IMG/VR virus record: IMGVR_UViG_3300037047_000246
Reading direction: 5' to 3' (one strand)
From: a virus
Lineage: Duplodnaviria; Caudoviricetes
Length of the DNA: 64,000 nt
This document shows, piece by piece, positions 2,558 through 39,343 of the stretch (its first letter is position 1; each line of letters starts with the position of its first letter). The notes below the pieces were generated by a model. That model saw only the letters and a program-made list of their open reading frames with translations. It had not been told where the DNA came from and searched no databases. Both the position numbers and the translations under genes were made by a program.

Positions 2558-3160
2558 TTACGAGTCTTGCACCTGTTTGGTGACTAGGTCCTGCAGAAAT
2601 TTCTCCAACACCTTTTCGGACGGGTTCCTGATTCTACAGATAGTGCCGTCCCGCCGGACAGCTTCGAGCTGCACCTTTTCGGACGGCCGCTCTATGTACT
2701 GAATTGCCCAACTGTTTCGCCGTACTGCTGCAAGCTGCACCTTTTCGGACGGCCGCTTGATGAACTGTACAGCGGTCCAGTTTTTCTTGACTGCTGCAAG
2801 CTGGACCTGCTCGGACGGACTTTTGATGCACTGAATCGAATCCCCGTCCATTTTGACTGCTGCAAGCTGCACCTGCTCGGACGGTCGCTTGATGTACTGG
2901 ACTGAGCGCCAATTCTGCCGGACTGCTGCAAGCTGAACCTGCTCGGAGGGGTTTTTGATATACCGGATCAACCAGCCGTTCTGCCGGACTGCTGCGAGCT
3001 GAACCTGCTCGGAGGGGTTTTTGGTATACCGGATCAACCAGTTTTGCTTGACTGCTTCGAGCTGGAACCGCTCCTGGCACAGACCCAGCGCGCATTTCAA
3101 GCCCAACTCGAATGCCACTTCAGGAGTCAGTCCGTACTTTTTCAACAAAGACTTCAGCAT
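2558..3160 (-). CDS. DUF4116-like 24-aa repeat protein with C-terminal tag (..DLVTKQVQDS)
   Basis: tandem PSEQVQLAAVRQNGWLIRYIKN repeats. Confidence 0.8.
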   Translation of the reverse strand: MLKSLLKKYGLTPEVAFELGLKCALGLCQERFQLEAVKQNWLIRYTKNPSEQVQLAAVRQNGWLIRYIKNPSEQVQLAAVRQNWRSVQYIKRPSEQVQLAAVKMDGDSIQCIKSPSEQVQLAAVKKNWTAVQFIKRPSEKVQLAAVRRNSWAIQYIERPSEKVQLEAVRRDGTICRIRNPSEKVLEKFLQDLVTKQVQDS

Positions 3161-4410: not shown

Positions 4411-4908
4411 TCATGACTCGTGCACCAGTTCCACTTGAACTTCGCTTACCGTTTCCAGCATCTGCTCGTGCGTGCCGCCCCGCTTGAAGAACGTCCGAAC
4501 GGCACGTTGCAAATTATCTTTTGCTGACCTCAAAGCCTCTTCGGCGTTTGAGGCGTCTGCTTGGGCGAACTGCTCTGGCGGAATGGAGGCGACGAACTCG
4601 ACGAACTTTTGCTGTAATATCAGGAAAGTTTGTTCGTAGTCTGATGACCAACTGTCGCAGCAAGTGTTGGCGTACTGCTGCAAACTGTTTGATATGATCT
4701 GCAGGTCTTCGGTGCGAGAAGGCTTTCTGAACGAAATGAACCAAGATGGCCTGGGGTCGTAGTCACCCAAGTGGGCCCGAGGCGTGTCGTACTTCGGATC
4801 TCCCGTGACGAACCTGGCCGACACCCTGGACCGGCTGAATACTCGGTCCAGCTCGAAGTGACCTTTCCGAGCCATTCGCTCCATGCGCTTGCGATCTCTA
4901 TCATTCAT
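4411..4908 (-). CDS. hypothetical, extended tag (..GGTHEQMLETVSEVQVELVHES)
   Basis: ORF track; tag. Confidence 0.8.
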   Translation of the reverse strand: MNDRDRKRMERMARKGHFELDRVFSRSRVSARFVTGDPKYDTPRAHLGDYDPRPSWFISFRKPSRTEDLQIISNSLQQYANTCCDSWSSDYEQTFLILQQKFVEFVASIPPEQFAQADASNAEEALRSAKDNLQRAVRTFFKRGGTHEQMLETVSEVQVELVHES

Positions 4909-4940: not shown

Positions 4941-5363
4941 TCACTCATTGTGGATGATCTCCACTTGGAGCTCGGGGCTGTACGGCCCGGACTCGTCTTG
5001 GGCCGACGGGGTCTGTCGGCCCAAAATGTGGCCGAACAGCTCGGTGAGCACGAGCACATCGTCCTCGTTCCTGTCGAACGGCAGGCGCAGCTTTTCGGCC
5101 ACGTAGTTAGGCGCCAGGTACCCGGCCGGAGCCAGCACGCAGCAGCGCCCGCTGCAAGCGCCGTCCGCGAGCGACACCACGAACGAGCCGGGAAAGCATC
5201 CGATCCCTTCTTCTGCGCCCCCGGGCACCTGCACGAACGACACCACATACCTGGAGCCGTTGCCCGGCTGGTACTCGAGCAGCACCTGGCGGGAGAACAG
5301 CCTGGTCGGGTCGTGATGATCGCGGATCCAGCAGATGGACTCTTGAATCGTCTTGGTTCGCAT
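4941..5363 (-). CDS. hypothetical, tag (..ELQVEIIHNE)
   Basis: GAGGTGA SD; tag. Confidence 0.75.
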   Translation of the reverse strand: MRTKTIQESICWIRDHHDPTRLFSRQVLLEYQPGNGSRYVVSFVQVPGGAEEGIGCFPGSFVVSLADGACSGRCCVLAPAGYLAPNYVAEKLRLPFDRNEDDVLVLTELFGHILGRQTPSAQDESGPYSPELQVEIIHNE

Positions 5364-5372: not shown

Positions 5373-5573
5373 TCAACTGTTGTGCACGAGCCACAGCTCG
5401 GCTTCTCGCTCTGTGATTTCCGTATTCGCAAACAGCCAGCGCCCGTCCGGGTGTGGGCAATCGTCTTCTGCGTGCCATTTGCACCAGGCTACAAGCTCCT
5501 GCCCTAGTGTGGCAAACCGGACAGCTGTGCAGCGGCATTTGCGGTCGTCATCGTCCACGTAGTTGCAATTCAT
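5373..5573 (-). CDS. small Cys/His putative Zn-binding protein, tag (..EAELWLVHNS)
   Basis: C..C...CxxH pattern shared with paralogs. Confidence 0.75.
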   Translation of the reverse strand: MNCNYVDDDDRKCRCTAVRFATLGQELVAWCKWHAEDDCPHPDGRWLFANTEITEREAELWLVHNS

Positions 5574-5683
5574 GACTCTTGCACCGCCTCGACCACGGTC
5601 TCTTTGACGAGCTCGGCCAGCTCCTGCTCAAGCTCGTCGGTGTCGGCCCCGGCGGCGTCAGTCAGCTTTGATGCACCAGCCAT
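5570..5683 (-). CDS. 37-aa tag-only micro-ORF
   Basis: MAGASKLTDAAGADTDELEQELAELVKETVVEAVQES*, manual translation. Confidence 0.6.
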   Translation of the reverse strand: MAGASKLTDAAGADTDELEQELAELVKETVVEAVQES

Positions 5684-5856
5684 ACCTCGGCCTCTTGTTC
5701 GGTCACTTCAGCATACAGGAACAGCCAAATGCCGCTTGCGTTCAAACCAAGCGCGTAATGCGCCTCGCACCTGGTCACCAAATAACCGTCGCCCGTCAGG
5801 GCGAACCGGACAGCTGGTCCGTTGCAGTACTCGGTTTCTGAGTGGTTGCATTTCAT
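5662..5856 (-). CDS. small Cys/His putative Zn-binding protein, tag (..EAEVWLVHQS)
   Basis: paralog of 5373-5573. Confidence 0.75.
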   Translation of the reverse strand: MKCNHSETEYCNGPAVRFALTGDGYLVTRCEAHYALGLNASGIWLFLYAEVTEQEAEVWLVHQS

Positions 5857-5866
5857 GGTGCCAATC

Positions 5867-6337
5867 TCACGACTGGTGCACTCCCTCGCAAATGGCTTCC
5901 CTCACGAGCTGCTGCAGCTGCTTTTGCGTCATGCCGCGGTTGACCAGATCTTGCACTTGCTCCTTGAAAGCTCGGCACTTCAGTTCCAAATTCCTTTTGT
6001 CCAGTGCCCGGCGTGAAGACTTGGCGCCGGCGGCAGCTTGGCGCAGGGCCTTCGCCACAGCTTTTTGCTGACCAGAGTCGGCTCTGGCCTCGTTTGCCCG
6101 AGCGGCCACCTGGCCGGACAGCTGAGCGGCGTCCTGCTCGGACAAGCAGACTCCGAAAGACAACGCCCAAGCGCGCAAGTGCTCTTTGGTTTTGTCAACG
6201 TCTCCTGAGTCCAGAACTTTGCACTCGACATATTTGCTGCCTGCAGCGGACTTGAACAGCACCGGCACGGACACTGGCACGGACACTTTGCCGGAGCCGT
6301 CCATCCAGAGTTTGCCGAGTCCAACCTCAAACTTCAT
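5867..6337 (-). CDS. hypothetical, extended tag (..GMTQKQLQQLVREAICEGVHQS)
   Basis: start MKFEVG after AGGAG SD and promoter motif. Confidence 0.8.
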   Translation of the reverse strand: MKFEVGLGKLWMDGSGKVSVPVSVPVLFKSAAGSKYVECKVLDSGDVDKTKEHLRAWALSFGVCLSEQDAAQLSGQVAARANEARADSGQQKAVAKALRQAAAGAKSSRRALDKRNLELKCRAFKEQVQDLVNRGMTQKQLQQLVREAICEGVHQS

Positions 6338-6360
6338 TACTAGCTCCTTCTTCCCCGGCT

Positions 6361-6400
6361 CGGTACGCGCGGCGCGCGGCGCCTTGCGCCGGCGCTCAAG
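6361..6400 (-). promoter_or_regulatory. bipartite promoter-like element
   Basis: TTGAGC-N26-CGTACCG; 39/40 identical to 17775-17814. Confidence 0.7.
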
Positions 6401-6929
6401 CTTCCTGCACCAAGCGAATGAGCTTGACCCGGTCGCGATATAGCCCATCCGGCTCCATCGAGTACTGGACCTGGCAGCAGTCGGCGAGTTTGGCCCAGAA
6501 CCGGAGCTTCTGGATGGTCTTGCCGTTCTTGCCCACGACCCTCCAAGTGATGGAGTCGTAATCATCCCCTTCCTTCAGGCGCCCCTTGTTGAAGGTCCGG
6601 ATGTAGACCCGGTCGCACTCCAAAGCCAGACCGGCCGGCAGGGTCACTTGGGTGCGCTTCAGAACTCCTCCGTAGCGCTGGCCCTCGACTGAGTCGTAGC
6701 AATCCTTCCAGTGATTGCCTGTGGGTTTGAAAACTCCGAGCGCCTTGCCGAACTCGTGGTTGCGACCCTCGAAATACAGCGTGAAGGTCCAAGACTCGGC
6801 CAGCACAATCCGGTCTCCGCAAGCTGGAATGAACAGCTTGGTAGCTTGCTTACGCGCCAGCGGCGTCTTGGACGCAAGTTCGCTCAAGTCCAACGGCCCG
6901 TTCTGTTTTGTCTTCTTGATCTTTGCCAT
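6396..6929 (-). CDS. hypothetical, tag (..KLIRLVQEA)
   Basis: GGAG SD; tag. Confidence 0.8.
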   Translation of the reverse strand: MAKIKKTKQNGPLDLSELASKTPLARKQATKLFIPACGDRIVLAESWTFTLYFEGRNHEFGKALGVFKPTGNHWKDCYDSVEGQRYGGVLKRTQVTLPAGLALECDRVYIRTFNKGRLKEGDDYDSITWRVVGKNGKTIQKLRFWAKLADCCQVQYSMEPDGLYRDRVKLIRLVQEA

Positions 6930-6932
6930 CGG

Positions 6933-7190
6933 TCATCTCCCGGAACCTGAGCAGACCCACTGGCGCACTTCAGCTGCGGCCGGCTCGACGCGGTGCAGCG
7001 CGAAGGTCCAGACTTCGTCGGAGATAAAGCCCCGGCCGCAGCTGCACTCATAGCACTGATCTAAGATTTCGAACCGGACTGTCATCGGCAAGTCGGCCCG
7101 GCGAGCGAACCGCAGAATCTTGCTGGCTTGCTGGGTCGCCAGCTCGTCTTTTTTGGCGAACAGAATTTCCTGCTTGGTTTTCCTAGGCAT
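6933..7190 (-). CDS. small hypothetical with CxCxCG
   Basis: coupled operon gene. Confidence 0.7.
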   Translation of the reverse strand: MPRKTKQEILFAKKDELATQQASKILRFARRADLPMTVRFEILDQCYECSCGRGFISDEVWTFALHRVEPAAAEVRQWVCSGSGR

Positions 7191-7374
7191 CGTGTACCTC
7201 CGCCACTTGGTTGAGTTGGTCGGCCACCGCGCTCGCCTCGCCGTACGTGTCTGCCGCAGCCACCTCCAGGTCTGGGACCTGGCCTAAAAACTCTGGCGTC
7301 ATACGTTCTCTCGGCATGGCCCGGTACCACCCTGACGCGTCCTTCAGCACGGCGTAAAGCTTGGGCTCAGGCAC
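7183..7374 (-). CDS. small hypothetical, tag (..LNQVAEVHDA)
   Basis: coupled; tag. Confidence 0.7.
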   Translation of the reverse strand: MPEPKLYAVLKDASGWYRAMPRERMTPEFLGQVPDLEVAAADTYGEASAVADQLNQVAEVHDA

Positions 7375-7561
7375 CGTGCACCTGCGCCACTTGGTTGAGT
7401 TTTTCGGCCAGCAGACACGCTTCCACGAACGGCATCTTGCTGCTCACAATTTCGACGTGTCTGAACATGAAGAACCACGAGCCCGCTTGGACCGGCGAGT
7501 ATCGCCCGCATATGTCGCGGCGAACAATCCAGCAACAAGCCGTCACATCAGAGTATTGCAT
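7367..7561 (-). CDS. small hypothetical, tag (..LNQVAQVHGA)
   Basis: 3' end near-identical to that of 7183-7374. Confidence 0.55.
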   Translation of the reverse strand: MQYSDVTACCWIVRRDICGRYSPVQAGSWFFMFRHVEIVSSKMPFVEACLLAEKLNQVAQVHGA

Positions 7562-7582
7562 TTTGTCCGCTCCCGGCGCAGG

Positions 7583-8158
7583 TCAGCTAATTTGAACGTC
7601 CGCCACTGCCATGAGGTCCTCGAGCTCCTGCTCGGTTGTCGGCGCAGCGTGGTGCTGCAGCAGCTGCGCCACCATCCCAAGCCGAGTGCCAGGCCGGATG
7701 TTGGTGGGCGTCGTGCCGCCGTTTCGAAGCAGCATCAACTGCACGGCTGACACTAGGTCGCGGACCGGCATCGAATACCCGCGAGCCTCGATCAAGCCCG
7801 CGTCGGCAGAGCGCCATATGAACTCGTTGACGAGCGCCGTCGGGATGGGCCTGATCTTTCTGCATAAGCGCTCGTAAGAGACGGCAAGCTTGGCCAAAGA
7901 CACGGTCAGCATGCCTGCCACAGGCCAATGCGCCCCAGGCTTGGGCTGGAATTTGTCCATCGTCAAACGCCGCAGCAAGTAGTGCCGCAGCGCGGCGGTC
8001 GGATCGCACTTCGGGCAGTCGACTACGTGCTTTTTGACTTCAGTGTACAGATGCACATTGTCGACCATGAACCGTTCGACCCGGTCGGTCTTATCCAGCT
8101 TGAACCGGCCGTTTCCGCCTTTGCCGTTGCCGGACACCGTGATGATGCAGTCAAACAT
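7583..8158 (-). CDS. hypothetical with CxxC, tag (..LMAVADVQIS)
   Basis: start MFDCII; CPKC; tag. Confidence 0.75.
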   Translation of the reverse strand: MFDCIITVSGNGKGGNGRFKLDKTDRVERFMVDNVHLYTEVKKHVVDCPKCDPTAALRHYLLRRLTMDKFQPKPGAHWPVAGMLTVSLAKLAVSYERLCRKIRPIPTALVNEFIWRSADAGLIEARGYSMPVRDLVSAVQLMLLRNGGTTPTNIRPGTRLGMVAQLLQHHAAPTTEQELEDLMAVADVQIS

Positions 8159-8163
8159 ATGCG

Positions 8164-8376
8164 TCACCAATCCCCCAGCGCTCGAAACGCTGCTGTCAGC
8201 TTCGCCATATCCTTGGGCTGCGGCTCGTCGAGCAGCTCCCAGCGCACGTTGAAGACGTGCTTGCGCCGGAACCGCGCGAGCCAGGAGAGCACGCGCCCGA
8301 GCGGGATCGTCGCGTGCGTCGTGGGCGCGTTGCCGGCGCACTTCTCGTACGTCACCTTCATCAGCACTCGGACCAT
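8164..8376 (-). CDS. small hypothetical
   Basis: GGAGGTGA SD and promoter motif upstream. Confidence 0.7.
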   Translation of the reverse strand: MVRVLMKVTYEKCAGNAPTTHATIPLGRVLSWLARFRRKHVFNVRWELLDEPQPKDMAKLTAAFRALGDW

Positions 8377-8383
8377 GCTCTAT

Positions 8384-8435
8384 CACCTCCGCGATCGTAT
8401 ATTCGCGGCGCGCGGCGGGCTCCGGCCGGCTTCAG
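8384..8435 (-). promoter_or_regulatory. bipartite promoter-like element (variant downstream box)
   Basis: CTGAAG-N26-AATATACG...GGAGGTGA. Confidence 0.55.
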
Positions 8436-8443
8436 GGAAGGCG

Positions 8444-9424
8444 TCACTCGGCCATCATGGTGTAAATTTGAAGGAGCGGGATAGCGGCCAGAGCGATGCC
8501 CTTGCCTTTGTGCTCGTGGCGCGCCACGACTTTGGTCATCTCGTAAAGGGCATTCGAAGCCGCGCGGTTGTTTTGATCCCAGCCGTAACCCATCCGAAGC
8601 TTGTCCCAGCTCCAGCGGCGCTCGTTGTAATCCTGGTGCGCCACAGTCATGAGGCGGGCCAAGTCTTCGGGCTCGGGCAGCTTCATGCCTTTGGGCCAAT
8701 GCTGTTCGACGACCTTGACAAACGTCTGGGCGAAGTCGTCCTTGCCCTTGGAAATGAGCTTTTCGATTCGGCGGTCAATCGCCTCCTTCTTCGAGACCAG
8801 GACCTCGGGCCAGGCAACGGCCAGGCGCTGCTGCAGGTCCGCGAAGTGCGGGCTGTTGGCAGCCAACCAATCCAATTCAATCCACTGCTCGAACTCCTTG
8901 GCCACTCGGGTCTCGATCACCAGCGGCGACAGCCCATCTCGCACCAGCTCGAACTTCGGCTGCACCAGCACGCTGCCTTGCTCCTCGACCGGGTCCGGCG
9001 CGTGCTCTCGCTTGTGCGTGGCCATGATGTCTCGAAGCTTGAATTCGATGGGCGCCGAGAGCCATTGCACGGCGCGGTCGCACTCGGCAGGCGCGGTCGC
9101 CCGCGCTCGCTGCCGGAAGGCATATTCGAAGCCGCTCATCTGGCGCGCTTGCGGCCACAGGCTGTCGATGAGCCCGGCCAGGGCTTCAGGCTGCATCTGG
9201 GTGGCCAGCTTGGCCGTTTGCAACAGGAGGCTGCCTTTTGGCGGCGCATACCCCCAGGCGGAGCACTCTCCGCCGCAAGCAATCCTGTAGCCTTCGACCA
9301 GGTCTGTGCCGTTGGTCAGCAGCACCCGGTGCTCAGCCAGCTTGCCTCGGATCTCCCCAAGATCGATCAGGCACATGACGCGCTGCAGCAAGTCGTTGAG
9401 TTCGGCAGGCATCTGCTCGAGCAT
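8444..9424 (-). CDS. hypothetical protein, 326 aa
   Basis: GAGGTGA SD; long ORF. Confidence 0.85.
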   Translation of the reverse strand: MLEQMPAELNDLLQRVMCLIDLGEIRGKLAEHRVLLTNGTDLVEGYRIACGGECSAWGYAPPKGSLLLQTAKLATQMQPEALAGLIDSLWPQARQMSGFEYAFRQRARATAPAECDRAVQWLSAPIEFKLRDIMATHKREHAPDPVEEQGSVLVQPKFELVRDGLSPLVIETRVAKEFEQWIELDWLAANSPHFADLQQRLAVAWPEVLVSKKEAIDRRIEKLISKGKDDFAQTFVKVVEQHWPKGMKLPEPEDLARLMTVAHQDYNERRWSWDKLRMGYGWDQNNRAASNALYEMTKVVARHEHKGKGIALAAIPLLQIYTMMAE

Positions 9425-9428
9425 TCGG

Positions 9429-9481
9429 TCACCTCTTTGGCGGGTACGCGGGAGGGCGGCGCACTGCCGCCCTCCCCTCAG
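9429..9481 (-). promoter_or_regulatory. bipartite promoter-like element with 11-bp inverted repeat spacer
   Basis: CTGAGG-N27-CGTACC; GGGAGGGCGGC/GCCGCCCTCCC. Confidence 0.65.
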
Positions 9482-9484
9482 GGA

Positions 9485-10726
9485 TCATTCGTAATCCCTC
9501 ACGGCGACAAACGAAGCGCATTTAGGTATGCCGTCCGATGTCGTGTCTGCAAAGCGGTAGGTGATTGTCGCACCCACTTTCGGCGGATTGTCGCGCTCGC
9601 GGTCCGTGAGCCCGGTGCCAACGTTGAACGTCTTGCCGTCGGCCATCCGGACCTCGAGCCCGCCCAAGCGACCCTTGTGGCGGCCCTTGCCGGCCACATG
9701 TCTAATGACCACGGCTTCGGCGTCCTTGAATGGCTTGAACTTCATCAAGGTGCTCGATCTTCGCGGCTCGTAGGAGCTGCCCGGCTTGCGGTACATCAGC
9801 CCCTCGGCCCCGTCCGCTGTCGCCTGCTTCAGGTGCGCCTCGGCCTCTGCTCGGCTCTTGCACGGCGAGTGGGGGTGGACGTGCGCGAAGTGTCCCAGCT
9901 CCAGTCCGGCCAGGTATGTCAGGCGCTGCTCGAATCCCTCGGTGCGGTTCGGTGCGTCGAACACCACGAACGAGACCTTGTCCCAGGCCTGGCCGGACCC
10001 GGCAGACCGGACGACCGAAATGGTCTTTTGGAACTGCTTGCGCCCCATCCACAACTCGCCGTCCAGCGGCACCTGGGGCAGCTCCGCCACGAAGAAGTCC
10101 GGGGCCTCGTAGACATTGCCCTGCCGCGAAATGAACTGAACACCTGACCAGTAGGCCCGGACGCCGTCGAGCTTCTCGGACTCGAGCCACCCAGTCGGGT
10201 CGAAGTCGTCCTCGACCGAGTTGGCCAGCAGCACAGGCGGTCCAAACAAATTTGTTTTCTCGTCCTGCCTGAGCTTGCGGCCCAGCCGCGCTTCCTCCTC
10301 GGCGTAGATGATCGTTTTCTCCTGGTCGGTGAAAGGCTGGAATCCGCCGAACCGGTTGACCCGCTTGGTCTTGTCCCGTTCAATGCCACCGTCCTGACAC
10401 GGGACGGTACTTTCCTGGGCTTGGGGCACCCGGGCAGGGGCGCTGACCCCCATGACCTGACGCACGACCTCCTCGGGGTCTTCCTGACCCCGAGCGGGCA
10501 TGGTCACTGGAGAAGTGGCCGGAGCGCCGCTCGAGATACGGGACTCTTCGACCGCTCGGCCTCGCTGGGCAATCAGGTGCTTGCATGTGCGTTGGTCGAT
10601 CGGCTTACTCTGCCGGGTCCAAGCAGGGCACGAGCAGCTGTATACCTCTCCGCGCCGGAGCAGCTTGTAGGGCTTGGCGCCGGAACCTTGAACCTGTCGA
10701 ACTTCCCCGTCTTGCCAGTCTGACAT
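9485..10726 (-). CDS. ATP-dependent DNA ligase with N-terminal SWIM zinc finger
   Basis: motif I SEKLDGVRA, EGLMYR, KFKP, C-terminal OB fold (VGTG..); N-terminal CSCPAW..TCKH. Confidence 0.92.
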   Translation of the reverse strand: MSDWQDGEVRQVQGSGAKPYKLLRRGEVYSCSCPAWTRQSKPIDQRTCKHLIAQRGRAVEESRISSGAPATSPVTMPARGQEDPEEVVRQVMGVSAPARVPQAQESTVPCQDGGIERDKTKRVNRFGGFQPFTDQEKTIIYAEEEARLGRKLRQDEKTNLFGPPVLLANSVEDDFDPTGWLESEKLDGVRAYWSGVQFISRQGNVYEAPDFFVAELPQVPLDGELWMGRKQFQKTISVVRSAGSGQAWDKVSFVVFDAPNRTEGFEQRLTYLAGLELGHFAHVHPHSPCKSRAEAEAHLKQATADGAEGLMYRKPGSSYEPRRSSTLMKFKPFKDAEAVVIRHVAGKGRHKGRLGGLEVRMADGKTFNVGTGLTDRERDNPPKVGATITYRFADTTSDGIPKCASFVAVRDYE

Positions 10727-10730
10727 GTTG

Positions 10731-10784
10731 TCACCTCCGCGATCCGGTACGCGCAACCGCCGCGCGCCTCCGGTGTTGTTTCGC
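10731..10784 (-). promoter_or_regulatory. CGTAC-class element upstream of ligase
   Basis: GCGAAA-N27-CGTACCG...GGAGGTGACAACATG. Confidence 0.6.
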
Positions 10785-10793
10785 CAGCACCAG

Positions 10794-11135
10794 TTACATC
10801 CCGGTTGAAAAACGCTCCCAGATCCGCTGCACGAGCTGTTGAACCTTAGGAAAGGAAACCTCTTCGAACGAAGGCAGCCAGCGGTTGTCTACTTCCACAG
10901 GCTGAGTTGTATCCACAAATGCATGGACGTAGCGGATTTTGTTGACTCCGTCATATTGAGCTTCCTCAACAAACTGAACTTCAATGCGAATGGGCGTCTT
11001 TTTCTTGCCCTCGATCGCCTCAGCGGTCACCTCGTAGCTGGCAAAGCACAGAGACGACTCCGGTTGGATGACCAGTTTCTTGATTCGGGTTGTTGTCTGG
11101 ACCTCTTTGCGCACCTTTTGCGAATTCATCATCAC
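10794..11135 (-). CDS. hypothetical protein
   Basis: GAGGAG SD. Confidence 0.75.
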   Translation of the reverse strand: MMMNSQKVRKEVQTTTRIKKLVIQPESSLCFASYEVTAEAIEGKKKTPIRIEVQFVEEAQYDGVNKIRYVHAFVDTTQPVEVDNRWLPSFEEVSFPKVQQLVQRIWERFSTGM

Positions 11136-11151
11136 TTCTCCTCGATTCTGA
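11132..11151. repeat. 20-bp direct repeat, copy 1
   Basis: TCACTTCTCCTCGATTCTGA, identical at 11876-11895. Confidence 0.9.
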
Positions 11152-11154
11152 GCA

Positions 11155-11544
11155 TCATTTGGTGAGTTGACGCCCTTTCGCCTTCAGTGCTTGCGCCTCT
11201 TCGCACCATTGCTCGAGCACTTCAATGAGCAAGATTGTTTGGCGATCTTCGAAGTATCCGCCGCAGGCCTCGCTTGCTTGGGGCAAGCCGAGGCCAGGAT
11301 GTTCTTCCAGCTCTTGGCCGTTCAGTTCCCATTCCTCCTCGCCGAAGTCGCCGTTCACAACGCCACTGCCTGTCAGCAGACCCAGCGGGGTGTCGGCTTC
11401 CAGCTCGAAGTAGCCAGTGGTGCGATCGTCGCCAGGGTCGAACTTAAACTGCACAATTTTGACCGGGCTCTTTTTGATCAAAAGCTGGTCGATGCGGGCG
11501 CGCTTCGCGCGCAGCTGCTCGGTTGTCATCTCAGATAGCTTCAT
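11155..11544 (-). CDS. hypothetical (MKLSEMTTEQLRAKR..)
   Basis: GAGGTGA SD; N-terminus like 33300 ORF. Confidence 0.75.
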   Translation of the reverse strand: MKLSEMTTEQLRAKRARIDQLLIKKSPVKIVQFKFDPGDDRTTGYFELEADTPLGLLTGSGVVNGDFGEEEWELNGQELEEHPGLGLPQASEACGGYFEDRQTILLIEVLEQWCEEAQALKAKGRQLTK

Positions 11545-11549
11545 GCTCG

Positions 11550-11870
11550 TCACCTCATCGCCTTGTTGACGGCCCTTGCCACGTCGCGAAGCCGCCGCAG
11601 GCTCAAGTCGTCAAATTCGCCGCCAAACGCCTCGCGGATCGGCTCGTCTGCCTCGCAGTCCAGTTCAGGCGCTTCTTCCATTTTGCCGCCGCGCCAGCGC
11701 CAAATCGTGAGAAAGTAGCTGCCGTTGGGCGAGAACAGGTCGTAGTTGTCTGGAAACTTGAACTGGACGCGGATTCGCGTTTCCGGCAGATTGAACTCGA
11801 ATGAGATCTCTCCCATGCTCTTGTCGTTTGCACGCACCAGCTTCACCTCATTGACCTTGATCTTTGGCAT
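11550..11870 (-). CDS. hypothetical protein
   Basis: GAGGAG SD. Confidence 0.75.
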   Translation of the reverse strand: MPKIKVNEVKLVRANDKSMGEISFEFNLPETRIRVQFKFPDNYDLFSPNGSYFLTIWRWRGGKMEEAPELDCEADEPIREAFGGEFDDLSLRRLRDVARAVNKAMR

Positions 11871-11875
11871 GTCCG

Positions 11876-11895
11876 TCACTTCTCCTCGATTCTGA
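11876..11895. repeat. 20-bp direct repeat, copy 2
   Basis: identical to 11132-11151. Confidence 0.9.
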
Positions 11896-12088
11896 AATCC
11901 CACCAATGGACGTCGTCTTCGTGCCCGGAGTTCCAGCCGCACCGCCTCAGCTCCGCCAGCTCTTCTGCGGTGAAGCTGGATGGAGGCGGGGTCCCGATGC
12001 ACAGCCAGCCTTCGTGCAGGCTCGGGTTGCCGACTGCCCTCGGAGCCAGGATTGCCAGACCTCGAGCCAACATCTCGTTCCTGTTCAT
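11876..12088 (-). CDS. small hypothetical
   Basis: GGAGGTGA SD, promoter motif upstream. Confidence 0.75.
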   Translation of the reverse strand: MNRNEMLARGLAILAPRAVGNPSLHEGWLCIGTPPPSSFTAEELAELRRCGWNSGHEDDVHWWDFRIEEK

Positions 12089-12095
12089 GCTGCGG

Positions 12096-12148
12096 TCACC
12101 TCCGCGGTCCGGTACGCGTGGCGCAGCCAGATCGCTGCCTGGCTTCAA
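12096..12148 (-). promoter_or_regulatory. bipartite promoter-like element
   Basis: TTGAAG-N26-CGTACCG...GGAGGTGA. Confidence 0.7.
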
Positions 12149-12342
12149 ACCTGGTGCACCAGCCAGCATTCAACTTCTTCGCGCGTCAGAACAGGTATGC
12201 CATATCGCCGCATCTCTTCATCTGTTATGTAAATGTTGCGATGTGCCGGACACACCGCGATGAGAGCGAGTCCGGCATTCACCAGATGAAAGTGTGTGGG
12301 CGGACTTTTACAACCATGGGCTCTGCAAGAAATGTCAACCAT
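12145..12342 (-). CDS. small Cys/His putative Zn-binding protein, tag (..EVECWLVHQV)
   Basis: CRAHGC..CPAH; tag. Confidence 0.75.
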   Translation of the reverse strand: MVDISCRAHGCKSPPTHFHLVNAGLALIAVCPAHRNIYITDEEMRRYGIPVLTREEVECWLVHQV

Positions 12343-12363
12343 CTTTAACCTTTTCGGTCAGCT

Positions 12364-12564
12364 TCACAGGTCGCAGATTTCGCCGACTCGGCCGATGGCG
12401 TCGTAGCCCTCGACCATGTCGGAAGCCTCTTCCCAGGTGTCGGCCTCGGCGACCTTCTCGACTGTGCCGGCAGCGAATTGCTGCAGCGCCTGCCACTCTT
12501 CTTTGGTCACCGCGCCGTGGACCGTTTTTTCGTGCGTGCGCTTGAAAACCACGAAGTTTTTCAT
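12364..12564 (-). CDS. small hypothetical (MKNFVVFKRTH..)
   Basis: ATGA overlap, GGAAGG SD. Confidence 0.65.
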   Translation of the reverse strand: MKNFVVFKRTHEKTVHGAVTKEEWQALQQFAAGTVEKVAEADTWEEASDMVEGYDAIGRVGEICDL

Positions 12565-12931
12565 TCTGTCCTTCCAGAGTCGAGCTCTTCGTAGACCACG
12601 ACGCAGCAAGACCAGTCGTGCTCCTTCATGTACTTGCCAGATCCTCGAGCATCCACTTGAGGAATGAGGTCCTTTGGCAGACGGCGCAGGCGTCTTCGCC
12701 GCTGCGGAATAAGACATATCTGTCGGTCGGCTGGTGCAAAATCATCTTGTCTTGCTTCAAAAAATGGGTTAGTTTCGTGTCATGCAGCCATTGATCGGTG
12801 CTGTCGCACCAATACACGTCGGCAAGCAGTCCCTGTTGGCCGCTCTCCGATTCGGCCGCTTTGTCTGCCATGTCGGCCATGCGCGCGAATTCTTTGCGTA
12901 GAATTTTGTCGCGGACGACTTCCAACTTCAT
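12561..12931 (-). pseudogene. hypothetical, probable frameshift near 12635
   Basis: EDLA|KYMKEHDWSCCVVVYEE continues in another frame. Confidence 0.5.
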
Positions 12932-13164
12932 GACTTCATAACTCCTCCCACTTCCTCGAGCTGGACCAGCTCGCACTCCTTCTGGTCGTGCTTCGGGTAG
13001 TAAGACTCATGCATCGACAGCCAGCACCTGGGGCAATAAGCCAAGCCCGGGAAATTCGGGTCCAGCAGGCACCCGTTCTCGTGCGGCACCAGCTGGTCCT
13101 GGATCTCTAGCGGGTCCCTAGGCACAGTCCGCTCAAGCGACGTGGCTTCAGGCGTCCGCCTCAT
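12928..13164 (-). CDS. small Cys-containing protein, tag (..LEEVGGVMKS)
   Basis: CPRC; tag. Confidence 0.7.
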   Translation of the reverse strand: MRRTPEATSLERTVPRDPLEIQDQLVPHENGCLLDPNFPGLAYCPRCWLSMHESYYPKHDQKECELVQLEEVGGVMKS

Positions 13165-13613
13165 GTCTTTCGCCTCGGCTCTGCAACCTTCTTGACGATT
13201 CCCCAGTCGGCGCTGCCATCAGGATCTTTGATGATTGTCAGCCCATGCCGATGCGCTTGCAGGCGCATCCTTTGCCCAGCCCCCCAACCCCTTGCCGGAC
13301 AGCCGCTTGAGGAGCTTGCTGAACGCCAAATCCGCCGCCATCTGGGCAGAGCTGGCTTCTGCCGAGGCGGACTCGCCGCTTTGAAACATAATGACGAAGT
13401 ACGTCACAACCCCTCCGTGAGGCCACTCTTGGCCAAGAAGGCCGCGGCGGCCACGTCAGCGTCTCGCTCCACAAACACCGAGGAAGTACCTGGCCTTGCC
13501 ACAGTGCCACTTGATGCAGAAGCTAGCTTCTCGCCCGGCGATTGTCGACACCACCCGAGCCTTGGAGCCGCTCAGCCGGGTGAGGCTGCGCGCCATCTGT
13601 TTGGCGAAGGCTT

Positions 13614-14057
13614 TCACGTCTCCTCCTTGCGGCGTTCGACCAGTTGAGCCAGCTTCAAGGCCAGGTCCCTCAGATCTCCGTAAGGCAGCGTCAGCGACAT
13701 CTCGTACAGCGACTGGACTTGGTCCTTGGGGCGGGCCTCGATCACTTCCAGAGAGTACAGCTCGCCGAGCTGCGGGTTCATGGTCCGGTACCCTCCCTCG
13801 ACCAACTGGCTGTCGACCACGCGGTCGCGATTGTACGCCATGATCGTCAGGACCACCTCGCCCTTTCGAGTCATCCACAGCGACTCGAACGTCCCGACGT
13901 AGTGGCGCCTGGCCAGGCCTTCTTGCAAAGTGGCTCGCTCGCTCTCCAAGACGGCCTGGCCGGTCGGGGGCCGTCCGGCCTTGTACGACACGAACAGCAC
14001 GGATCCGCGTCCGCAATCGGCCAGGGCTTCAATCATCTCTCGTTCGGTCATCGGCAT
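13614..14057 (-). CDS. hypothetical phage protein
   Basis: GGAGGTGA SD, promoter motif upstream. Confidence 0.75.
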   Translation of the reverse strand: MPMTEREMIEALADCGRGSVLFVSYKAGRPPTGQAVLESERATLQEGLARRHYVGTFESLWMTRKGEVVLTIMAYNRDRVVDSQLVEGGYRTMNPQLGELYSLEVIEARPKDQVQSLYEMSLTLPYGDLRDLALKLAQLVERRKEET

Positions 14058-14062
14058 GTGCG

Positions 14063-14116
14063 TCACCTCCGCAGCCCGGTACGACTCGCCGAGCGCGATC
14101 TGCGCCGGCGCTTCAA
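14063..14116 (-). promoter_or_regulatory. bipartite promoter-like element
   Basis: TTGAAG-N27-CGTACCG; near-identical to 14879-14930. Confidence 0.7.
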
Positions 14117-14124
14117 GATCCATG

Positions 14125-14199
14125 TCAGCTCTCCTGGATGCTTTTGACGTTGAACAGATCTTGATGAACGTCATGACCGAGCTCGGTAGATTCGATCAC
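14125..14199 (-). CDS. 24-aa tag-only micro-ORF
   Basis: GTG-IESTELGHDVHQDLFNVKSIQES*, GTGA overlap and GAGGAGG SD. Confidence 0.5.
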   Translation of the reverse strand: MIESTELGHDVHQDLFNVKSIQES

Positions 14200-14735
14200 G
14201 ACGTTTGCACCTCCTCGACCTCAAGCAGGTTTGCGAGCTCCCGGCGCTCGTCGGGCGGGTATCAGTCGAGGAATGCCAAAATTCTGCCCAGCTGCGGCCT
14301 GAACTGGCACGGCACGCTCGCCAGATCCAAGTTGTCTGCCAACATGGCACGTAGGTCAAGGTCGTGCTTGATGCCCAGCTCGCGCATCCATTCCATTTGG
14401 CCCTTGATGTAGAGGATGTCTCTCTTCAACCCGGTAACGGGTGGGGTCTTCTTGCACGCGGAGCGCCTCAGGAGCTCGCTTGCAGCCTCTTCCTCCGTCA
14501 TCTTCCAAAATGCGAACGTGAGCGTTACTTTGTCTGTCCGGATGACCATAGCCACGGGACAGTTGCTTCCCAGGAATCTGCTCGATACTGGCCGGGCTTC
14601 CTCGCAGTTGGCCGATCCAACGGCATACCACTCGTCGTCGAGCACCTCATGCGTGGCCACGGCTCTGACTGTGCCGACGGATTTGCCGTCGAGCAGATTC
14701 TGGCAGATTTTGGACAACTTCACCGAGTACTTCAT
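14196..14735 (-). pseudogene. hypothetical with internal TGA (14262-14264) before tag (..LLEVEEVQTS)
   Basis: in-frame extension YPPDERRELANLLEVEEVQTS* after the annotated stop. Confidence 0.65.
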
Positions 14736-14880
14736 GGTGCTTGCACCTCCCGAACGGCCTCCTCGGCCTCTGATCGACAGACAGGATCTTCATTTCACTC
14801 ATTCGCCGGCGCGCTCGCCTCTTGCTTCGCGTACGGTCAGCGCGCCCGGATCGCCGATGCGGTTTGAACTAGTCGCTCAT
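14732..14880 (-). pseudogene. decayed small tagged gene (..EEAVREVQAP) with two internal TGA
   Basis: AR*PYAKQ..NE*NEDPVCRSEAEEAVREVQAP*; no clean start. Confidence 0.4.
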
Positions 14881-14930
14881 CACTTCCGTCCGGTACGACT
14901 CGCCGGGCGAGATCTGCGCCGGCGCTTGAC
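14879..14930 (-). promoter_or_regulatory. bipartite promoter-like element
   Basis: GTCAAG-N27-CGTACCG. Confidence 0.6.
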
Positions 14931-14940: not shown

Positions 14941-15864
14941 TCAAACGCGCTCTCGCATGCAAAGTAGGCATTCCACCCGCGGACGTCCACTTGCCAGTTT
15001 GCCGACATAACAGCTTTCAACCGGAACAATGCCATGTCGCTCGCAAACTTTGTGTGTAACAACGCCATTCTGCATGACGTAAGTGCGATTTCGCTCTGAG
15101 TTGGCGTTGGCTGCGTCCAAAGCTGCTTGTTTGATCTTGGCCAGTGCCGCAACTGTATGTTTTTTGCCCTTGAAGGCGAGCGTTGTTTTGGCAATATGCT
15201 CCGGGCTGTGCTTCTTGCCACTGAGTGCGGCAGCAATTTTTGCGCGCACTGTTGGTGTCATTGCAGCACGAGACCGTCTCGATTGCGCTGCTTTGAATGT
15301 CGGTGTGTTGTGAGTCGCCACCATTTTCAAATAGGACTCATGACTAAGCAGTGGGTTCGGCAACGTCGCGCGCTTCGCGCGGTAGTCTTGGCGGTTCCAA
15401 GGGTTCCTACGATTTTTGCGCTTCTGCGGACTGACTGACCGCCAGTAAGCAATGGACGCAGCAGATATTTTCGCTTTGACCAGCGCGTCTGGCTTTCGTG
15501 GCGGCCTTGCCAACTGCTTTGCGCGAAACTCAGGCCTGTGCCATGGATTCGTGATCGGGTGCGGCTTGAACCCGCCTCCGGGCGCGAGGTTGAACCCAAA
15601 CATCGGATCGGTTGTCTTAAACTTCTTGATGAAGCGCCTCTCGGCTGCATTTGCTCGCTGCAGGGAGCTGTATTTTGCGAGCACCTCATGGACGAATGCG
15701 TCTTTGCCGTACTTGCGGATTGCATTAGCGAAGTGTGACCACCCACCACGGTTTCGAGTCGACGTGTAAACGTGTTGATTCCAACGCTGCATCACTGTCT
15801 TCTTGGTCAGCCCGATGTAGCGGCGGCCGGATTCGATGTGGGTGTGGCAGTAAACAGTATACAT
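14941..15864 (-). CDS. GIY-YIG homing endonuclease with NUMOD-like basic tail
   Basis: MYTVYCHTHIESGRRYIGLT..; FGFNL; HSPEH/HTVAA repeats. Confidence 0.85.
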   Translation of the reverse strand: MYTVYCHTHIESGRRYIGLTKKTVMQRWNQHVYTSTRNRGGWSHFANAIRKYGKDAFVHEVLAKYSSLQRANAAERRFIKKFKTTDPMFGFNLAPGGGFKPHPITNPWHRPEFRAKQLARPPRKPDALVKAKISAASIAYWRSVSPQKRKNRRNPWNRQDYRAKRATLPNPLLSHESYLKMVATHNTPTFKAAQSRRSRAAMTPTVRAKIAAALSGKKHSPEHIAKTTLAFKGKKHTVAALAKIKQAALDAANANSERNRTYVMQNGVVTHKVCERHGIVPVESCYVGKLASGRPRVECLLCMRERV

Positions 15865-17008: not shown

Positions 17009-17779
17009 ATGAACAACCGACTGCGCGCCATTTGCGACAAGTTGCCCTGGACGTTCGAAACGTCTGCCGGACGGGACGAGCGGACGAGAGACATCGTGCT
17101 CGGTCTGGGCGATCTTGCCGCTCTCGGGCGCCGGGCGCAGAAAGCGCTCGACGAGCTCGAGCGCTCAGGCAGCTTCAGGGGCCTAGCCCCCTACCTGAAG
17201 ACCAACGAAGGGCGCATTGACCAGCTGAGGTTGGACGCCGCGTCCATGCCGCCTGCTGCAGAGCTCAGCCCAGCGCAGCTGCGCTGGGTGCGGCGCCTGA
17301 AGCTCGAGTGCGTGCGCATCGAACCGAGTTCGGCTTCCACGAGATGGGTAGCTCAACTGTGCGGAGTAGGCTACGATTGGGAGCCCCGCCGCAGCCGATT
17401 CGCAATTGTGCGGACGCAAGTGCAAGTGGCTGCGGCAGTAATTGCCCCATCGCGCAACCACTGCGATTCGTACGCCATAGGGTCTTTCGGTCCAGATCAT
17501 TTGACTCTGGACATGTCGGACGACAGCGCGCCGGAACTGGACCCTGCAAAGCTCGCTCAATCTGCAGCCGAACGGCTGGTGACCTGCTGCGATCGCGGCT
17601 TTCGCTCGGATATGGCCAATGTGCGGGTAGCCAGGAAGCAGGTGCAAGCGAAGCTTGTCGAATCCGGCAAGTGCCTCGAGTGGACGGAGATGTGCCGGGA
17701 AATGATCGCGAGCGCCAAGCGCGAAGCGATGGCGGGCGAGTATGGACAGCAAGCCGTGAAGCACGTGATGGAGACTTGA
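17009..17779 (+). CDS. hypothetical, tag (..QQAVKHVMET)
   Basis: long ORF; tag. Confidence 0.8.
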   Translation: MNNRLRAICDKLPWTFETSAGRDERTRDIVLGLGDLAALGRRAQKALDELERSGSFRGLAPYLKTNEGRIDQLRLDAASMPPAAELSPAQLRWVRRLKLECVRIEPSSASTRWVAQLCGVGYDWEPRRSRFAIVRTQVQVAAAVIAPSRNHCDSYAIGSFGPDHLTLDMSDDSAPELDPAKLAQSAAERLVTCCDRGFRSDMANVRVARKQVQAKLVESGKCLEWTEMCREMIASAKREAMAGEYGQQAVKHVMET

Positions 17780-17815
17780 GCGCCGGCGCAAGGCGCCGTG
17801 CGCCGCGCGTACCGG
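17776..17815 (+). promoter_or_regulatory. bipartite promoter-like element
   Basis: TTGAGC-N26-CGTACCG. Confidence 0.7.
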
Positions 17816-17846
17816 GCAGCGGACAACAAACCAAGAGGCGAACGTC

Positions 17847-18386: not shown

Positions 18387-19133
18387 ATGGTTGGCAGATT
18401 TGTGGTGGACAACAACTCTGATCCGGCGGAAGCAAAGCAAGTTTTGCGCCAGCTCCGCCGCACAGTCCGGTTGGGCAAGATAGCGGAGCGCGCTCTGAAG
18501 TCTTTGGAGGAGAGAGGATCTTTCGACAGCAGGGTCGTCGTGCTGCACAGGGAATATGGCTACTACTGCGCTGCTGTGCGAAAGTTGTCTGCTTACAGAC
18601 CCTTCAGTCGGGACGACGTGCCCGGTTGGCCTGAGCTGACTGTGGTGTGCGGCAAGAAGACCATAGGGTCCCACGGCGGCTCCCGATTCGACCAAGTGTC
18701 TTTGTGGCTGCTTGGCACAGGGTTTGCGCCGCGCCGCCATATCAAGCCGGTCGACCAGTGGGAGCAGGTGACCCTGCGCAAAGGCGTGCCGGGAGCGAGG
18801 CTCGGCACATGTCGCATGAAGGCGAACGGCGAAGTGACGTTTGTCGTGTCGTCGTCTCTAGAAGAGACGACGAACTGCGTGATACGCATCAGCCGGAATC
18901 CAGGCGCTTCTGCCAAGTCCTTGGCAGAAGCGCAGCGCTTTGCGCGCGTCGTGGCGGCATGCTTGGTGGATGTCGGCCGCCCCCACGAACTGGAGCTGTT
19001 CAAAAAGTGTCCGCAGTACTTGACGGACCTGCGGCGCGCTGCGCCTGACTGGCTCATTGAAGACGGACACGTCCACCGGATGTTCAACGACATTCTGGAC
19101 GCTGTTGCAGTTGTTCGAGTGATGGAGGCGTGA
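18387..19133 (+). CDS. hypothetical, tag (..AVAVVRVMEA)
   Basis: GAGGGTG SD; tag. Confidence 0.8.
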   Translation: MVGRFVVDNNSDPAEAKQVLRQLRRTVRLGKIAERALKSLEERGSFDSRVVVLHREYGYYCAAVRKLSAYRPFSRDDVPGWPELTVVCGKKTIGSHGGSRFDQVSLWLLGTGFAPRRHIKPVDQWEQVTLRKGVPGARLGTCRMKANGEVTFVVSSSLEETTNCVIRISRNPGASAKSLAEAQRFARVVAACLVDVGRPHELELFKKCPQYLTDLRRAAPDWLIEDGHVHRMFNDILDAVAVVRVMEA

Positions 19134-19515
19134 GCATGATCGAATTCAAATCGGCCGGGGCGACGAGGTCTGGCAAGCGGGTGCAGGCGCACTTCAAAGT
19201 GGACGGCCAAACCCGGTGCTGGACTTTGACGCCGACGCTCGCCGAGCAGTTCAAAAAGCAGTTCGATAGAGGCGGCACATCGAGAGACATCACCGTGTAC
19301 CAAATGTTGGCGAGCATGATCGGAGGCGACACGATCAGGCTGCGCCAGACCGCGCAGGAGCGCAAGATGCAGCATCGCGTGCAGCGCTGCGGCTGTCCGA
19401 GGCCGACAGCGCGCTGGTCGCATGGACGAGGCAGGCGCTGCAGTTTGGCATGAGCGATGCCAGGCTGCGCGAGATCTTCGAAGAAGCGATCGTGCAAAAC
19501 ACGCACGAGTCGTGA
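19130..19515 (+). pseudogene. hypothetical, -1 frameshift near 19378, tagged end (..EAIVQNTHES)
   Basis: RKMQH|RAALRLSEADSALVAWTRQALQFGMSDARLREIFEEAIVQNTHES*. Confidence 0.65.
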
Positions 19516-21814: not shown

Positions 21815-22292
21815 CTATCGCTTCATTAAATCTGCCCCCTTATCATGATCGTCAAACCACCATTGCTGCGACAAGCAACTCTCTAAAATCTTTCCATGAC
21901 GCCATTTTTCCTCTGCCACAGTCCGCACCGCACGAACAACGTCTTTCTCGTCAATCGAGTACCAGCTAAGCTCCCTGCTGTTGTGTCTCAAAATGTTCAT
22001 GTGTGGCTCGTCGTCAAGTTTGACTGTGATCCCCCCATGCGTCAATGTTGGCAGACACGGCTTCATACCGAAGCCGCAGGTCACCCTCCTTGGCACTCTT
22101 CAGGACGCTAGCCAAGTTCCTTTTATAAGACGCCTTATTTGCAGCTGCCTTTGCAGCCTCCATCTGTTCAACTCGCACCGAGCGAACTTCATCATTCATC
22201 TTTTTCATCAGACGTTTGACTGTCGAAGCAGGGAGGCCTTTTTGTTTGCACAACCGTTCCAATTCTTGCGTCAAACACATATCGTCTCTCAT
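21815..22292 (-). pseudogene. hypothetical, +1 frameshift in C6 run 22031-22036
   Basis: NIDAWG|ITVKLDDE joins two ORF-track entries. Confidence 0.55.
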
Positions 22293-22465
22293 GAATCTTG
22301 CACCATCTGCACCGCGATTTCGCGAACTCGGTCACTTATCTCTTCCGGCGACAGGCCGAGCTTCAACAGAGTTTCCACGCCTGTACGAAGGGACTGTTCC
22401 GCAAGCTCTTTGGCGAGTTTCAGATTCCAATCAGGATCTCCGCCTTGTTTGTCACCTTTCGACAT
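22289..22465 (-). CDS. 58-aa protein, extended tag (..LGLSPEEISDRVREIAVQMVQDS)
   Basis: GGAGTGA SD before MSKGDK. Confidence 0.7.
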   Translation of the reverse strand: MSKGDKQGGDPDWNLKLAKELAEQSLRTGVETLLKLGLSPEEISDRVREIAVQMVQDS

Positions 22466-22497: not shown

Positions 22498-22734
22498 TCA
22501 GTCTGTCTGCACGCGGTGCACTATTCACTCTTCGAACGAAATTTCCGATATGCCAAGCAGTGCAAATTGTGGCGAGTGGTACTCGCAGCGCGCCAGCGTT
22601 TCCCCGTCTGCGCGAAGGAAGAAGTGCGCTGCGAATTTTTCGCACTGTTTTAATGGTGAAGGGCTGAGCCCAACATACACGAGACAAAATGCTTCGCACT
22701 GCACGCGGCCAAGAGCTGTCGCCCGGTCACACAT
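22498..22734 (-). pseudogene. small Cys/His Zn family gene with internal TGA (22525-22527) inside tag
   Basis: ..CEKFAAHF..RCEYH..ISFEE*IVHRVQTD*. Confidence 0.65.
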
Positions 22735-23176
22735 CCTGCACTGCCTCAACCAGCACCTCTTTGCACATAACGGCGAGCTCCTGCTCCAGGGAGTCCAACG
22801 TCTCGCCGCGCCTGACCAGGTCGACCAGGAGGGGTCGAAGCTTGCGGATGCACGCTCGGACTCGGATCTTGGTGTTGGTCAACTCGCGTTTCGGCAACCC
22901 AGCGAACCCTTGCGCAATCGCTGCCTCGAGCCGGTCCAGGTCTTCGGCCGGCAGCTCGCAGCACGAAATGTGTCCCACGGATGCCATCGCCGATCTCGTA
23001 GAGGCTAAAAACCAGCTTCCTTCTTCATGCTGCACGATGTGCGAATGCTCATCGCGATTAAATTGACCTTCGTAGTATCGAAGTTGTTTTGCTGCTCCAT
23101 TGTAGCTTACCGAGATCATGACTCTTGGTAAGCTCCTTTTCAGGGCAGACGTCCGCGGCTTCCCAATTTCAATCAC
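22727..23176 (-). CDS. hypothetical, extended tag (..SLEQELAVMCKEVLVEAVQDV)
   Basis: GTGA overlap start; tag. Confidence 0.75.
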   Translation of the reverse strand: MIEIGKPRTSALKRSLPRVMISVSYNGAAKQLRYYEGQFNRDEHSHIVQHEEGSWFLASTRSAMASVGHISCCELPAEDLDRLEAAIAQGFAGLPKRELTNTKIRVRACIRKLRPLLVDLVRRGETLDSLEQELAVMCKEVLVEAVQDV

Positions 23177-26674: not shown

Positions 26675-26678
26675 GCGG

Positions 26679-31216: not shown

Positions 31217-31269
31217 GCAAAAGCAGGCGGAGCTGCTCCGCCCGATCGCGTATTGGGCAGCGGAGGTGA
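31217..31269 (+). promoter_or_regulatory. CGTAT variant element with inverted-repeat spacer
   Basis: GGCGGAGC-T-GCTCCGCC; CGTATTG...GGAGGTGA. Confidence 0.55.
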
Positions 31270-31274
31270 CGGAC

Positions 31275-33565: not shown

Positions 33566-33598
33566 GAGGCACCAGCTTTATCGAACCAGGAGGAACTG

Positions 33599-35717: not shown

Positions 35718-35769
35718 TCATAGCCCGGCGGAACTGCGCGCGACTCGTGCGTACCGGACTGCGGAGGTG
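35718..35769 (+). promoter_or_regulatory. CGTAC-class element
   Basis: CGTACCG...GGAGGTGA; upstream box weak. Confidence 0.55.
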
Positions 35770-35839
35770 ACGGTATGCCGAAGACGAAGCTGACTGAATT
35801 CCGTCTCTCCGACGAGGATCAGGACGAGGAGGTGACAGT

Positions 35840-39339: not shown

Positions 39340-39343
39340 TCGC

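Follow-up and report, generated by a model that had tools for sequence, protein, structure and literature searches.

Several very short open reading frames (ORFs) in the 64,000-nucleotide stretch of phage DNA analysed here (the window) consist of little more than a C-terminal peptide, the tag, that also ends many longer genes of the same genome. We propose that these frames, among them the micro-ORFs 5570-5683 (m1, 37 aa) and 14125-14199 (m2, 24 aa), are probably, though far from certainly, by-products of fast gene turnover in an accessory-gene region and not a dedicated class of free-peptide genes. As the genes are tightly packed and the tagged end of one gene holds the Shine-Dalgarno (SD) sequence of the next, tag-coding DNA is carried along with rearrangements. 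The SDs that it supplies to downstream starts are strong, with duplex energies of -11.0, -14.0 and -15.5 kcal/mol compared with a gene median of -6.1 kcal/mol. The tail of m1 is paralogous to that of a larger gene, m2 lies in a unit bracketed by direct repeats, stop codons or a frameshift separate further tags from their genes, and the one distant relative has no counterpart of the micro-ORFs.

The model can be stated in a few steps. In its final 10-25 codons, a tagged gene also holds the SD of the following gene and often overlaps the start codon of that gene. A duplication, insertion or deletion that leaves the following gene expressible would then drag tag-coding DNA along, and point changes could sever a tag from its gene. 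The resulting spectrum would range from fragments that are not genes (14196-14261, 14732-14794 and 33517-33567), through the displaced tail of a frameshifted gene (19450-19515, m4), to frames that acquired an accidental ATG (m1) or inherited a strong SD (m2). The order of these events, and translation itself, are what we infer here; some translation of m1 and m2 is probable, as a side effect. An earlier sequence-only reading had proposed either that such peptides act as decoys or competitors, or that the frames are raw material showing that the tag moves as a module. The second idea survives in a more mundane form, in that the tag-coding 3' end of a gene carries the ribosome-binding site (RBS), and often the start, of the next gene and goes along with its duplication or insertion.

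The tag and the frames that end in it

The window corresponds to positions 265348-329347, read on the reverse strand, of a virus record of 362,524 bp that has direct terminal repeats and is the complete genome (G000) of a groundwater phage of about 362 kb. The genome holds four tRNA genes, one of them with the anticodon UUA, and its 295-aa major capsid protein is of the HK97 type and resembles gp27 of PDB entry 6WKK (E = 1.6e-57). This protein was also considered as an encapsulin that might read the tag, a candidate we rejected, as the same match identifies it as an ordinary major capsid protein.

One C-terminal peptide is common to many genes of the window, on both strands. We described it by a 12-column scoring matrix built from the tagged ends of G000 and of its only sequenced relative, a distant one (G001, a 376,674-bp record whose DNA ligase is 69% identical). 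A good fit has an acidic residue at position -10, Val or Ile at -7 and -4, His, Gln or Met at -3, an acidic residue or its amide at -2 and Ser or Glu at -1, with the stop codon directly after. At a score of at least 8, G000 has 83 tagged ends and G001 has 111, with about 2 expected by chance. Throughout G000, six open frames of at most 45 codons end in the tag, and five of these score at least 12, compared with 0.47 expected over all frames. All six fall inside this one 64-kb window, as do two GIY-YIG genes and the repeat-bracketed cassettes. The four frames singled out by the sequence-only reading are present, with tags scoring 12.0-19.7, and four further fragments carry the tag as well (Table 1).

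As the Glu-Val codons of the tag (GAG GTG) coincide with the SD core, the motif could be a product of chance or of nucleotide-level constraint, with the SD of the next gene merely read as amino acids. In line with this, the weakest fragment, 14732-14794, is made up largely of the SD of the following gene, and GTG makes up 68% of the Val codons four residues from the end compared with 43% genome-wide. The tag also shows some enrichment of GTG and of those Ser codons that give rise to ATGA or GTGA overlaps. Yet the codons for Met, His or Gln at position -3 have no base in common, both Ser codon families are used at -1 and all four Val codons at -7 and -4. This mixed codon usage indicates that the tag is conserved at the protein rather than the DNA level. 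In addition, the number of short frames scoring at least 12 far exceeds the 0.47 expected, and fragment 50860-50931 carries its tag with no downstream gene on its strand. The codon analysis refutes the SD explanation for every frame except 14732-14794, to which alone it may apply, and as a general account we regard it as extremely unlikely.

In the whole genome, TGA terminates 80% of tagged frames compared with 60% of long ORFs, which is partly due to ATGA and GTGA start-stop overlaps. In a subset of the tagged proteins the common part is longer, a module of about 45 residues consisting of a helix, a turn of a basic residue, Gly, any residue and Ser or Thr, and the tag helix. A full-text literature search did not find such a tag, or ORFs made of the tag only, described.

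Anatomy of the short tagged frames

The micro-ORF m1 is located between two tagged genes of a Cys-Cys-Cys-His family, c64 and c66. The Val-Trp codons of the c64 tag, read in another frame, supply its ATG; the overlap with c64 spans 22 nt and takes in the first seven m1 codons, and the stop codon of m1 forms an ATGA overlap with the start of c66. The overlaps expected from the translational coupling that had been suggested for both micro-ORFs are present for m1 on its upstream and downstream sides. From the Gly at residue 12 onward, m1 is homologous to the tail of p149, a 149-aa tagged gene at 22727-23176 (blastp-short E = 8e-6). The similarity between the two tails noted from the sequence alone is real: over the last 24 codons they are 61% identical in nucleotides and 58% in amino acids, which ranks seventh among 3403 tail pairs, and in five of the six closer pairs the protein similarity reaches into the body of the proteins. 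A tail of this kind followed by a Cys-Cys-Cys-His gene occurs twice, as m1/c66 and as p149/c69, which indicates that a junction of gene end and RBS was duplicated. In the simplest history, the left end of a segmental duplication would have fallen within a p149-like gene, some 26 codons short of its stop. The SD of c66 is contained in the m1 tag codons, which serve as the RBS of c66 and so give this DNA a reason to persist whatever the fate of the peptide. Public gene callers predict m1, and its coding score is 0.45 bit per codon.

Around m2, gene ends form a patchwork in which an inserted gene is embedded. The micro-ORF lies in an 814-bp unit that is bracketed by the two 51-nt direct repeats, with a GIY-YIG endonuclease gene directly upstream. 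A genome-wide search for the 36-nt core of the repeat, allowing up to 3 mismatches, found these two copies only. Inside the unit, g157, a 157-aa gene, is cut off from a 21-codon tag fragment (14196-14261) by an in-frame TGA, and the decaying fragment 14732-14794 contains the g157 SD GGGAGGTG. Among the other tagged proteins of the genome, one of 94 aa has a tail with weak similarity to that of m2 (E = 0.006). Although the GTG of m2 overlaps the stop codon of 14196-14261, the coupling proposed for it fails: with its only start-type codon at the 18th position, the overlapped frame is not a gene and cannot provide a termination-coupled start, and m2 has a strong SD of its own. The following gene probably starts at ATG 14057 (SD -15.2 kcal/mol) and not at the ATG just after the m2 stop codon. 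A protein search with g157 matched only itself, and IMG/VR, searched with the two genes flanking m2, returned nothing. Having inherited a strong SD, m2 is probably translated, but nothing shows that the peptide matters.

The start region of the gene after m2 is one of seven places with a recurring element upstream of gene starts, consisting of a GC-rich palindrome or hairpin, a box resembling GCGTACCGG, a spacer of a few bases, the SD GGAGGTGA and ATG. The element has the look of a terminator-promoter-RBS cassette common to many operon heads.

The gene 22289-22465 (m3) had been described as almost only tag. It is indeed 58 aa long with a strong tag, but m3 is an ordinary small gene, called by public pipelines within a dense operon, whose product is the tail module alone. 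The whole of m3 can be aligned with the C-terminal 45-58 residues of six larger tagged proteins, and AlphaFold2 predicts helices at residues 11-35 and 40-57 (mean predicted local distance difference test score, pLDDT, 79). A near-length search of 5.8 billion proteins matched only m3 itself.

In contrast, the 21-codon frame m4 is the tail of a frameshifted gene. The suggested 21-aa tag peptide does have a frame and a well-kept tag, but an open frame of 81 codons ends in m4, and the coding signal passes from the annotated frame of 19130-19453 to that of m4 near 19340-19380. As this longer frame takes over the coding signal, m4 represents the displaced end of the gene and not a peptide gene with a start of its own; its SD is weak. 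The m4 ATG corresponds to the Met of a Gly-Met-Ser/Thr turn that is also present in two larger tagged proteins. In two larger proteins, the internal Met codons where the tail module begins lack an SD, so that internal initiation of free tags is unsupported.

Two more fragments lie elsewhere in the window. The tail of 33517-33567 matches the tails of two genes with DUF4116 repeats (2558-3160 and 55351-56103), and the adjoining 78 nt (about 33442-33519) form one repeat unit of the DUF4116 family in inverted orientation. This inverted repeat fragment truncates the neighbouring gene 33300-33497, which matches the family of 11155-11553 over its first 40 residues. Fragment 50860-50931 lies between convergent genes. 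For m1, m4 and 33517-33567, the full-length genes of which they are scars are thus found within G000 itself. A 20-bp pair at 11132 and 11876 brackets a two-gene cassette in which the gene end is untagged, and it shows the same mechanism of junction duplication operating independently of the tag. A Pfam search on the neighbours of the micro-ORFs gave nothing except DUF4116 in 2558-3160 and a weak UBA-like match.

Table 1. Coordinates of the tagged frames, their neighbours and related elements in the window; SD, duplex energy of the SD in kcal/mol
Feature	Coordinates	Strand	Tag score	SD	Remarks
m1, 37-aa micro-ORF	5570-5683	-	19.0	-5.8 (ATG)	chimera of borrowed ATG, short junction and 26-codon tail module
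c64, 64-aa tagged Cys-Cys-Cys-His gene	5662-5856	-			upstream of m1; 46% identical to c66 (alignment)
c66, 66-aa tagged gene, Cys-Cys-Cys-His family	5373-5573	-		-11.0	ATG overlaps m1 stop; SD inside m1 tag codons
p149, 149-aa tagged gene	22727-23176	-			tail is closest relative of m1 tail
c69, 69-aa Cys-Cys-Cys-His gene	22498-22734 (ORF to TGA 22525-22734)	-			directly after p149; in-frame TGA 22525-22527
m2, 24-aa micro-ORF	14125-14199	-	12.0	-15.5 (GTG)	GTG start; SD GGAGGTG 8 nt upstream
21-codon tag fragment	14196-14261	-	17.9		only start-type codon is the 18th; in frame directly after TGA of 14262-14735; no difference in five other contigs
g157, 157-aa gene	14262-14735	-		-14.0	tag lost to in-frame TGA; on 6 contigs
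Weak decaying tag fragment	14732-14794	-	9.1		only start-type codon is the 17th; overlaps g157 ATG
51-nt direct repeat, copy 1	14063-14113	-			just upstream of next gene's SD, in the 5' region of that gene
51-nt direct repeat, copy 2	14877-14927	-			84% identical; SD and start decayed; just after GIY-YIG gene
GIY-YIG endonuclease gene	14941-15864	-			Pfam PF01541 in public gene calls; directly upstream of the 814-bp unit
m3, 58-aa gene	22289-22465	-	18.2	-7.9 (ATG)	two-helix tail module alone
m4, 21-codon tag module	19450-19515	+	19.7	-5.5 (weak)	displaced end of frameshifted gene 19130-19453
16-codon tag fragment	33517-33567	+	15.1		relic of DUF4116-repeat paralogue; only start-type codon is the 13th
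23-codon tag fragment	50860-50931	-	17.1		between convergent genes; out of frame with upstream gene
Orphan 20-bp junction of gene end and SD	11132-11151	-			exact match to 11876-11895, which ends a real gene
Recurring start-upstream element	14057-14113, 35750-35781, 31249-31277, 12095-12148, 39283-39350, 17775-17823, 45900-45924				
Longer tail module	4411-4908, 5867-6448, 22727-23176, 26063-26695, 61662-62732, 22289-22465				tag is second helix of a small hairpin

Relatives, stop codons and the proposed free peptides

With the DNA ligase as anchor, IMG/VR yielded one useful relative, G001, and the metagenomes of the Joint Genome Institute (JGI) yielded seven contigs at 30-66% identity. The three closest JGI contigs are rearranged or end before the m1 site, and the others match the ligase only. 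Conservation in relatives had been named as a check on the micro-ORFs; synteny with G001 and tblastn show none, and the syntenic regions contain other genes. At the m1 site, the orthologous flanking genes enclose three other genes, with no m1 counterpart and no tblastn match; the orthologue of the gene after m2 is preceded by unrelated genes, again with no m2 counterpart. Among the 111 tags of G001, only one or two end strong short frames, and the strongest of these stands in frame behind a stop codon. An exhaustive HMMER search with m1 against 1.84 billion protein representatives matched only m1 itself.

The sequence itself is reliable. Of eight contigs that carry g157, five were compared with the window and show 99.9-100% identity along their full length. 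The stops and the frameshift are therefore real and no assembly errors; being near-identical, these contigs check the sequence only and say nothing on evolution. Public DNA runs contained no variants within the micro-ORFs. In contigs from one RNA library, m3 and the gene beside m1 are covered and m1, m2 and m4 are uncovered, with carry-over of DNA possible; the contig spanning 22286-22590 includes m3 and is weak evidence that m3 is transcribed.

Two in-frame stop codons in the window remove only the tag, the TGAs at 14262-14264 (g157) and 22525-22527 (c69). In c69 the TGA occupies the Trp position of the gene's own tag and is followed by eight more codons; read as Trp, it gives a tag score of 15.3. 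Tag loss by a single stop is also seen in the other lineage, where G001 210362-210400 (within the orthologue of window 4941-5363) has a stop codon within the tag position. Such sites could reflect conditional tagging by recoding, in which programmed stops or a frameshift let read-through or slippage tag a fraction of the product and the tag-only frames are the second halves of longer genes. Besides the two TGAs just before or within an otherwise intact tag, the high share of TGA among tagged frames fits this proposal, and so does a gene of about 170 aa in G001 (190721-191425, minus strand), whose C-terminal part resembles a capsid protein and which continues after an in-frame TAA with 20 codons ending in a tag that scores 19.4. 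Both phages carry a tRNA with the anticodon UUA, which reads UAA, so that the suppressor of G001 itself could add the tag to this gene product. Yet the two window sites are UGA, for which the G000 tRNA does not account; no slippery heptamer was seen at the frameshift (19340-19380); the G001 gene with the TAA found no other relatives; and m1 and m2 are left unexplained. A nonsense mutation that costs a gene nothing but its C-terminal tag is tolerated by selection, so that such cases are expected with no programme behind them. We therefore rate recoding as very unlikely.

The more serious competitor to gene turnover is that m1, m2 and m3 are made on purpose, as free tag peptides that compete with about 80 tagged proteins for a putative tag reader and act as decoy, timer or regulator. 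Both m1 and m2 have start codons and SDs, the coding score of m1 is good and its tag is better kept than neutral drift predicts. In addition, m3 is a real gene whose predicted fold is the two-helix tail module alone and which an RNA-library contig covers. Against deliberate peptides stand the missing counterparts in G001, the database searches in which m1 and m3 matched only themselves, and the ATG of m1, an accident of its neighbour's tag codons. Moreover, three sister fragments (14196-14261, 14732-14794 and 33517-33567) have their only start-type codon 3-4 codons ahead of the stop and cannot be translated as ORFs of their own, and in G001 the 111 tags come with just the one or two strong short frames, the strongest behind a stop codon and not an ORF of its own. 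These findings speak against the decoys or competitors first envisaged, and we consider such a role unlikely. A composite is decidedly unlikely, too: deliberate free tail-module peptides (m3, perhaps m1 and m2) combined with tagging that is switched at stop codons, UGA here and UAA matched to the suppressor tRNA in G001. If it were true, the fate of some 80 accessory proteins would be tuned at translation termination.

Several observations weigh against gene turnover. The orphan tags are surprisingly well kept (19.0, 19.7, 17.9, 17.1 and 15.1), so that either the breaks are all recent or the peptide is still selected. The m1 and p149 tails show 28 differences; with half of these simulated as neutral drift on m1, a score of at least 19 was kept in 0.9% of the copies and of at least 12 in 9%. 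As so few drifting copies keep their score, the m1 tail has been under protein-level selection for most of its history, which is compatible with a recent truncation as well as with a functional micro-ORF. Furthermore, m1 and m2 possess a start codon and an SD, with a good coding score for m1, and with m3 the genome does have a gene whose product comprises hardly anything beyond the tail module. The comparison behind the model spans one distant relative and no variant strain.

If gene turnover is nevertheless the right account, the micro-ORFs are mostly debris, yet debris that is informative on how the tag spreads and is lost in a phage lineage: its coding DNA, being the RBS of the next gene, would travel with duplicated or inserted genes and be shed by single stops or frameshifts. 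Such frames should not be counted as small-protein genes. The natural tag-less and tag-only variants (g157, c69, m1 and m3) are usable as controls in a search for the reader of the tag, and for binding or structural studies m3 provides the smallest natural version of the tail module.

Comparison with known systems

Short C-terminal peptides on unrelated proteins are also known from the cargo-loading peptides of encapsulins, for which a free peptide could in principle compete. The phage tag differs from them in that its motif is unrelated in sequence, no shell or receptor is known for it and no free-peptide gene is conserved.

Read-through of a stop codon has a phage precedent in Q-beta, whose coat protein is extended past a UGA to give the A1 protein. 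The arrangement at g157 is similar, with a phage gene, an in-frame UGA and then an extension. In contrast to A1, the extension comprises only 21 codons, the phage's own suppressor tRNA reads UAA and there is no sign of a leaky or conserved stop.

Small upstream ORFs that pass ribosomes on to an overlapping start, by coupling of the ATGA type, occur in bacterial and phage operons. Like these, m1 ends in an ATGA overlap and contains the SD of the next gene. Unlike these leaders, m1 derives from the recycled end of another gene and still specifies a peptide with a complete tag of the targeting type.

Mosaic phage genomes offer a further parallel. Gene remnants and junction duplications at gene boundaries are features of such genomes, as are cassettes moved beside free-standing homing endonuclease genes. 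The window likewise has fragments of 3' gene ends beside intact genes, direct repeats around inserted units and GIY-YIG genes nearby, and its fragments are lineage-specific and absent from G001. What sets it apart is that about 80 unrelated genes share one C-terminal tag and the fragments are easily seen, and that the tag DNA is also the RBS of the next gene, which explains its retention.

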